From a virus (Duplodnaviria; Heunggongvirae; Uroviricota; Caudoviricetes), in the IMG/VR virus record IMGVR_UViG_2529293061_000007: a stretch of DNA of 35,846 nt; one strand, written 5' to 3'. Of the stretch, positions 34,857-35,517 are shown one piece after another. Below the pieces are notes generated by a model, which saw only the letters and a list, made by a program, of their open reading frames with translations, was not told where the DNA came from and ran no database searches. A program made the position numbers and the translations under genes. The number at the start of each line of letters is the position of its first letter. Position 1 is the first letter of the stretch.

Positions 34857-35517
34857 ATGCATCGTATAGACACGAAAACCGCGCAGAAGGATAAGTTCGG
34901 CGCGGGTAAGAACGGTTTTACCCGTGGTAACCCCCAGACCGGCACACCTGCCACCGATCTGGATGATGACTACTTTGACATGTTGCAGGAAGAACTTTGT
35001 AGCGTGGTGGAGGCCTCCGGTGCCAGCCTGGAGAAAGGGCGGCATGACCAGCTACTTACCGCGCTTCGCGCGCTGCTGTTAAGCCGCAAGAATCCGTTTG
35101 GCGATATCAAATCGGATGGCACGGTGAAAACGGCTCTCGAAAACCTTGGTTTGGGAGAAGGCTCTGCATTACCTGTTGGTGTCCCTGTTCCGTGGCCTTC
35201 AGCCACCCCGCCGACAGGCTGGCTGAAATGCAACGGTGCGGCTTTTTCTGCTGAAGAATACCCGGAACTGGCGGATGCTTATTCAATGGGGGAGTTTTTC
35301 TGTCTCACCAACCGGAGGAAGTGTTGGAACAGTTGATATAACATTACCTGTAGCTTTCCCTGCTGCTTGTCGTTCGGTAAACGCTCTTATTTCAACTAAT
35401 GATCCTTCTGCCCGTTCTGTGGGCTTTGATATTGGAAGTACCAACAGAACTAAAATCAGATTTACTTACACTTCTGCTACAACAAATTCAATTTACTGGA
35501 TGGCTGTGGGGTATTAA
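34857..35517 (+). CDS. tail fiber protein, apparently split by a 1-nt frame change at the T-run 35295-35299
   Basis: N-terminal [48 protein letters not shown]... and ...[24 protein letters not shown] collar-like segment; frame stops at 35336 while the next frame continues to 35517 with an AT-rich C-terminal tip. Confidence 0.6.

Follow-up and report, generated by a model that had tools for sequence, protein, structure and literature searches.

Based on sequence comparison with related prophages, we conclude that the window, i.e., the entire stretch of 35,846 nt analysed here, ends inside the predicted invertible P segment of an e14-type tail fiber switch. The arm following the constant part of the fiber gene appears to be a damaged or mis-assembled copy of the ordinary switch, in which pieces of both arms are joined between positions 35272 and 35273. 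Two products are predicted for this hybrid arm, a fiber stub of 159 aa, which would be dead, and an orphan tip ORF of 80 aa (Table 1), and a functional fiber would not be expected from it. The window forms the terminal part of contig APZD01000007.1, which belongs to the draft assembly GCA_000358935.2 of E. coli P0302308.14; sequencing runs of its siblings include SRR446986 and SRR446988. A sequence-only reading had placed a frame change at a run of five T (T5) in this region, but the true discontinuity is found 23 nt upstream of the T run.

Table 1. Position of the features discussed in the text (window coordinates)
Feature	Position	Strand	Remarks
Aldedh-family (proA-like) gene	1-1254		followed by tRNA-Thr and integrase
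tRNA-Thr(CGT)	1369-1444		followed by integrase
Constant N-terminal part of fiber gene (stfP/Mu S-like)	34857-35133	+	upstream of crossover site
Truncated fiber ORF	34857-35336	+	159 aa, TGA at 35334-35336; constant part, half collar domain and 15-residue out-of-frame tail
26-bp Pin (Din-family) crossover site	35134-35159	.	CTCTCGAAAACC TT GGTTTGGGAGAA
Collar-type (stfE-type) arm piece	35161-35272	+	112 nt; first half of Phage Tail Collar domain
9-mer GGAACTGGC	35264-35272, 35837-35845	+	ends exactly at junction; recurs one base before contig end
Aberrant junction zone	35270-35283	+	break 35272/35273, ..GGAACTGGC/GGATG..
Tip arm from nt 100 to stop	35273-35517	+	Gp53-like_C receptor-binding domain, Pfam PF21882
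C at 35278	35278	+	A in all relatives and siblings
T5 run	35295-35299	+	wild-type codons AGT TTT TCT (S F S) of tip domain
Tail fiber assembly gene, tfaP type, first 109 codons	35520-35846	+	Pfam Caudo_TAP; cut by contig end

The fiber gene contains a Din-family crossover site

The crossover site matches the Din consensus at 19 of 20 positions and is unique in the window, where the next best position reaches 13. It is located within the fiber gene at the boundary between the constant and the variable part, which is where a Din-family site is expected. The repeat TTGGTTTGGGAGAAGG, published for the e14 P segment, is present at 35146-35161, and divergence among the relatives begins exactly after 35160. 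Upstream of the site, the constant part is identical in both orientation states, as seen in JE86-ST02 and JE86-ST05, RM10466 and the siblings.

An inverted partner site was detected in 16/16 related segments (1,732-1,875 nt) and also in the sibling contigs L034 and L039. Since the window ends before the distal crossover site and the invertase, both were read from relatives and siblings only. A serine invertase (Resolvase and HTH_7 domains) is encoded beside the distal site in the sibling contig L034 and in L019, JE86, RM10466 and GE3, and the layout stfP-tfaP-(tfaE-stfE)-pinE is complete in L001, L002, L006, L007, L010 and L019. Beyond the point corresponding to the window end, the relatives carry tfaP; tfaE and another fiber C-terminus come next, on the opposite strand, and pinE is last. 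A Fis-dependent recombinational enhancer of the Din-family type would be expected within the invertase gene and hence beyond the window. The window itself comprises pieces of both arms and tfaP; full pairs of arm and Tfa gene are found in the relatives and in the sibling contig L011.

Both orientations occur naturally, with an intact collar fiber of 260 aa in JE86-ST02 (L006) and an intact gp53-like fiber of 216 aa in JE86-ST05 (L007). In silico inversion of the GE3 segment between its crossover cores yielded a fiber of 215 aa that is intact and carries the tip seen in the window. Unlike both intact orientations in the sister strains, the window's own arm is out of frame. We regard the P-segment switch as live in this prophage family, with the JE86 sister strains as a natural demonstration of its flipping. 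The P segment of e14 is flanked by the same repeat and is flipped by PinE, PinQ and PinR (2025, PMC12529663). In the relatives of the window, a PinE-type serine invertase exchanges DNA at two inverted 26-bp sites, one of them inside the fiber gene, and thereby joins the constant N-terminus either to the collar-type C-terminus or to the gp53-like tip, each with its own Tfa chaperone. Normally, modules are exchanged at the crossover site by site-specific inversion. The invertible fiber-tip switch as such is already known for long (Pin of e14, a relative of Gin of Mu and Cin of P1).

The arm in the window is joined from two arms

The collar piece occupies the place of the tip arm's own first 99 nt. 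It is identical to the collar arm of JE86 at 111/111 positions (35162-35272) and covers Pfam Collar positions 1-33 of 57 only. From 35273 onward, the sequence shows 99.65% identity to the tip arms found in RM10466, GE3, L019 and the siblings; in the siblings, this arm sits on the opposite strand. Up to 35272, the window equals the sibling contig L011 as well as L019. Mapping of the breakpoints on L019 showed that collar position +112 is joined to tip position +100, the counterpart of the sequence past the junction being located at 17628-17055 on the opposite strand. The expectation that the two fiber parts have separate nearest relatives was borne out by alignment: the best match up to 35272 is the collar-ON fiber of JE86-ST02 and the siblings, and from 35273 it is the tip arm found in RM10466, GE3 and the siblings.

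The parental sequences at the breakpoints are GGAACTGGC/AAAGG in the collar arm and GGGG/GGATG in the tip arm. Downstream of the crossover site, an unbroken collar arm would contain ..GGAACTGGCAAAGGC.. and a normal tip arm ..CCTGGGGGGATGATT... At the junction, at most 1-2 nt are shared, i.e., there is no usable microhomology, and no resemblance to the crossover site was found. The GG at 35273-35274 is what is left of a run of six G (G6) in the tip arm. Because 112 nt replace 99 nt, 13 nt are gained and the frame is broken. The first two residues of the out-of-frame tail of the 159-aa ORF overlap the junction, and the orphan tip ORF starts at the ATG at 35275, with no evident ribosome-binding site upstream.

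A fall in GC content near the frame change had been noted from the sequence alone, and the measured values agree with it: GC is 0.556 in the constant part of the fiber gene and 0.589 at 35161-35272, falls to 0.412 at 35273-35517 and amounts to 0.407 in the tfa gene. The same reading had suspected a recombination junction nearby. A junction does exist at 35272/35273, but its position and its meaning differ from what was proposed. The boundary of the host-range module is the Pin crossover site instead of the GC drop, and the AT-rich tip, which had been taken for a swapped-in import, is the prophage's own second arm, while the abnormal element is the 112-nt collar piece.

The T5 run is an ordinary coding sequence

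The coordinates of the truncated fiber ORF, of the T5 run and of the end of the tip ORF at 35517 had been given correctly, and the tip ORF indeed lies directly before the assembly gene, which encodes a protein of 143 aa in the relatives. The +1 frame is open from 35227 and stops at 35515-35517. Removal of one T from the T5 run creates a single ORF of 219 aa, as had been predicted. The two ORFs are fused by any −1 change within 35227-35333 (107 nt), a stretch containing three homopolymer runs (the T5 run, a second T5 run and a G5 run), and runs of at least five T occur 51 times in the window.

A one-base insertion in the T run, by sequencing error or mutation, would have split a once-continuous fiber gene and would explain why deletion of one T restores the 219-aa ORF. 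Nevertheless, we give this explanation practically no weight. Five T are kept in 25/25 tip arms of this type examined, intact 215-aa fiber genes included; among the latter are RM10466 and, after the in silico flip, GE3. The intact genes are read across the run as CAA TGG GGG AGT TTT TCT GTC (Q W G S F S V), and 48 homologous 215-aa proteins show QWGSFSVS at this place. As the same T5 is present in intact homologs, the run is exonerated. Further, the length difference of +13 nt maps upstream of it, at 35161-35272. The T-deleted fusion would link positions 1-33/57 of the Collar profile to positions 14-84/84 of Gp53-like_C (Pfam), hence two truncated domains, whereas the fibers naturally found with this baseplate carry one of the two domains in full, Collar (1-57/57) or Gp53-like_C (1-84/84); among the matches listed, 0/120 homologs combine both domains in one fiber.

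A programmed +1 ribosomal frameshift or transcriptional slippage on UUU-UUC could also be imagined to produce a full-length fiber, since re-pairing of tRNA-Phe in the +1 frame on U5 is formally possible. The two-frame layout, however, is not conserved, the homologs being single-frame 215-aa proteins, and split forms elsewhere have different causes. Half of the collar domain would be missing from such a product, as would the strand with which the tip domain begins. In addition, a stimulatory context is missing: U5 is generally too short for efficient slippage, and the codon that follows is a common one, which gives no stimulation. We therefore consider programmed frameshifting a negligible explanation. 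The frameshift between G and G-T of phage lambda is similar in that two tail-gene ORFs overlap with a homopolymer in the overlap, but the split in the window is not conserved and its run is ordinary coding sequence in intact homologs.

In practice, a "repair" of the T run would create a chimeric protein made by no phage. Before a frameshift is called, pipelines for host-range prediction or annotation should identify invertible fiber segments together with their crossover sites.

Genomic rearrangement or assembly artefact

The junction sequence has no match in 5,426 complete E. coli genomes, GTDB species representatives or phage records. Both junction-specific proteins were found in one contig only and in none of the Logan contigs, and the private protein alleles of the P0302308.14 assembly were likewise found in none of the Logan read-based assemblies. 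A sibling contig of 724 kb (L011) matches the window to exactly 35272 and then continues into an intact collar fiber, i.e., it is collar-ON. Two other sibling contigs (L034, L039) show the normal distal arm, consisting of pinE, the crossover site, a complete tip arm with G6 and tfaP; this distal arm equals window positions 35273-35846 except for 35278. Since siblings of P0302308 carry a normal segment, the join is private to one error-prone draft assembly.

The contig differs from the siblings at seven positions in approximately 20 kb (22082, 24784, 27830, 28339, 33721, 34377 and 35278), and all seven are exchanges between A and C or between G and T. This pattern is the classic sign of channel cross-talk in Illumina sequencing. 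The seven private differences are probably cross-talk consensus errors and point to a poor consensus quality of the assembly; accordingly, the C at 35278 is probably a base-call error. Recombination mosaicism was considered for this base and rejected, because it belongs to the same class of exchanges as the other private differences. The sibling assemblies L013 and L014 have private differences of their own, again of this class. Errors of this kind would make the alleles of the tape-measure, baseplate-J and YmfQ genes look unique.

The contig end (35846) lies 30 nt past a polymorphic site at 35816. Contigs L034, L039 and L040 stop at the same base as the window, even though they come from different assemblers and projects. 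This shared stop point suggests a break of a k=31 graph at 35816 combined with a second Tfa copy in these genomes. In general, invertible fiber segments are spots where draft assemblies break or may mis-join.

On balance, we lean slightly toward the view that the arms underwent a real illegitimate rearrangement, which would be private to isolate P0302308.14. An assembly artefact is a serious possibility, albeit not the explanation we would choose. In that case, both orientations and additional arm copies would have been present in the culture or in the assembly graph, the segment in the genome would be normal, and the draft assembler would have linked the beginning of the collar arm to the tip arm, which in this strain lies on the opposite strand. 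An artefact is consistent with the occurrence of the junction in one of several sibling assemblies, L011 being normal, and with the cross-talk-type errors, one of which is 6 nt away from the junction. Further, the sibling contig L013 ends exactly at the pix repeat, indicating a graph branch there, the window's contig ends where a k=31 graph would break, and no Logan contig contains the junction-specific ORFs or private alleles. The replaced lengths are also roughly in register (112 vs. 99 nt). However, no k-mer or overlap is shared at the join, so a mis-join by a de Bruijn or overlap assembler is hard to produce, and random ligation chimeras rarely link points 1.6 kb apart. Moreover, RM7190, a finished PacBio genome, contains a hybrid of this kind, which likewise ends in the G run of the tip arm.

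For the sibling P0302308.2 (P0262), a 109-aa tip ORF is listed on a contig of 57,634 nt, which is 12 nt shorter than the window's contig of 57,646 nt. This region may be the same locus in tip-ON orientation with another interruption.

A second hybrid arm and a frameshift hotspot in the tip arm

In the finished E. coli genome RM7190 (L002/L027), collar position +89 is joined to the G run of the tip arm, and the hybrid is out of frame. A 106-nt inverted repeat of 99% identity results at 4285-4390 and 6039-6144. The collar arm is intact and its first 89 nt are copied before the tip arm. Because the other arm is intact, the event was non-reciprocal. The RM7190 junction is a singleton among the 5,426 genomes, and the repeat stops no more than 2 nt from the crossover motif, thus without extension, in 15/16 surveyed segments.

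The G6 run (CCTGGGGGGATG) is located just upstream of the tip domain and 20 nt upstream of the T5 run. It is shortened to G5 in five independent assemblies (L026, L028, L029, L030 and L031), comprising isolates and two metagenomes. These G5 variants belong to at least two sequence backgrounds and release the same orphan 80-aa tip ORF. The run is a genuine homopolymer frameshift hotspot. The joins of both hybrids, in the window and in RM7190, fall in this run as well. Together with the G6 to G5 slips, this points to a fragile or stall-prone site.

Two further damaged arms were observed. In L016, a frameshifted fiber of a different tip type is present at 15594-16180, for which no gene is called. 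In P0301, the collar arm has an internal duplication followed by an out-of-frame tail.

Assuming that the join is real, an illegitimate rearrangement would have linked the two arms in the window hybrid, one of its breakpoints lying in the fragile G6 run of the tip arm. For RM7190, the simplest model is a strand that departs from the tip arm at the G run, uses the other arm as its template and comes back via the homology of the crossover site. Non-reciprocal copying of this kind from the other arm could have formed the window hybrid, too; alternatively, a one-step reciprocal inversion from the collar-ON state of the siblings or a templated insertion may have taken place. Because the contig stops 574 nt past the junction, with the distal arm out of view, the window fits all three forms. 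The product of a reciprocal hybrid was found neither as DNA nor among predicted ORFs, and the product of a templated insertion (TfaP..GEELA/KAYPTNK..) was not found, either; in both cases, such contigs could easily be missing.

The 9-mer GGAACTGGC has only two copies in the window, both on the + strand, whereas approximately 0.27 would be expected when both strands are counted. Each copy encodes ELA, and the codon phase does not differ between them. The templated-insertion model would explain this repetition, but the second junction it predicts was not found.

Recombination by Pin itself at secondary (quasi) crossover sites inside the arms was also considered. Cin of phage P1 is known to recombine at quasi crossover sites, and a literature search on Cin quasi-sites returned nothing relevant. 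It would suit this explanation that the rearrangement begins at the crossover site and lies inside a substrate on which the invertase is active. Nevertheless, the breakpoints reach at most 10/20 matches to the consensus, a score exceeded at 115 other window positions, and the RM7190 product is non-reciprocal, unlike that of a conservative site-specific exchange. Pin-mediated recombination at quasi-sites was rejected, as neither breakpoint shows any site similarity, and we consider it very improbable.

As a speculation to which we would assign a low probability, arm-to-arm copying from the crossover site to the G run of the tip arm might recur naturally in Pin-type segments. The repeats would grow longer through occasional in-frame outcomes, whereas out-of-frame outcomes and the G6 to G5 change would release the orphan tip. 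If so, in-frame copying could give rise to longer inverted repeats and shared fiber "necks", comparable to the 0.6-kb repeats of P1, and the orphan 80-aa gp53-like tip could act as a free receptor-masking protein like StfE2. StfE2 of e14 is a free receptor-masking protein (PMC12529663). The non-reciprocal arm copying in RM7190 is, in any case, a possible route for the growth of the inverted repeats of such switches. This copying and the G6 to G5 hotspot with its five independent assemblies are small positive points in what is otherwise a cautionary case.

Comparison with known invertible segments

The closest known system is the P segment with PinE of E. coli K-12 (stfP-tfaP-tfaE-stfE-pinE). 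The TTGGTTTGGGAGAAGG repeat, the constant N-terminus of the fiber and both kinds of arm (gp53-like tip, collar) with two Tfa genes are the same there, and its segment of approximately 1.8 kb with an adjacent serine invertase is common to the relatives and siblings of the window. However, e14 is a 15-kb remnant at icd, whereas the window is a full-length myovirus prophage at a thrW site. Its tip allele differs from that of e14 in K-12, and the arm beside the constant part is hybrid and out of frame.

The G segment of Mu, with Gin and the alternatives S-U and S'-U', follows the same logic: the crossover site is located within the fiber gene, and each of the alternative C-termini comes with a chaperone of its own. 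The window likewise has Mu-type genes gp43-gp48 directly upstream. In contrast to Mu, the arms are of a different type, the fiber is much shorter (215 or 260 aa) and the invertase is located outside the window.

The C segment of P1, inverted by Cin, has inverted repeats of approximately 0.6 kb which are in frame and functional. A similarity exists insofar as the start of one arm was copied to the other in RM7190, and possibly in the window, which lengthens the inverted repeat. Here, however, the copy has only 89-112 nt (a 106-nt repeat in RM7190), is out of frame and inactivating.

Inverted repeats are known as places of template switching, and stalled forks as places of microhomology-mediated rearrangement (Ripley; Lovett). 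The replacement in RM7190 resembles template switching, as it is non-reciprocal and bounded by a short inverted repeat and a slipping homopolymer (G6 to G5). In comparison to classical quasipalindromes, the arms are much farther apart (1.8 kb) and the joins show no microhomology.

The prophage carrying the switch

The window is a full-length but decaying myovirus prophage at a tRNA-Thr site. Its genes include terminase, portal, capsid, sheath and tape-measure, and Mu-type baseplate genes are found upstream of the fiber gene (DNA_circ_N, gp44/P, gp45, GP46, Baseplate_J and Gp48/YmfQ by Pfam; gp43-gp48). An assignment to e14 at icd was rejected, as the window begins with a proA-like gene, tRNA-Thr and an integrase. 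The closest relative overall is the JE86 prophage (98.8% over 24 kb).

In the tail sheath gene (25078-26573), one G is missing compared to the relatives (GGGG to GGG, at approximately 26405), and ORFs of 467 aa and 41 aa are present instead of 498 aa. This deletion is common to the P0302308 siblings. Consequently, the prophage is probably tail-defective.

A closely related prophage (L017) has a quite different fiber on the same baseplate at 15594-16921, namely a 304-aa protein with a Gly_rich_2 domain together with a 137-aa gene. It contains neither an invertible segment nor an invertase and represents a whole-module replacement downstream of ymfQ.
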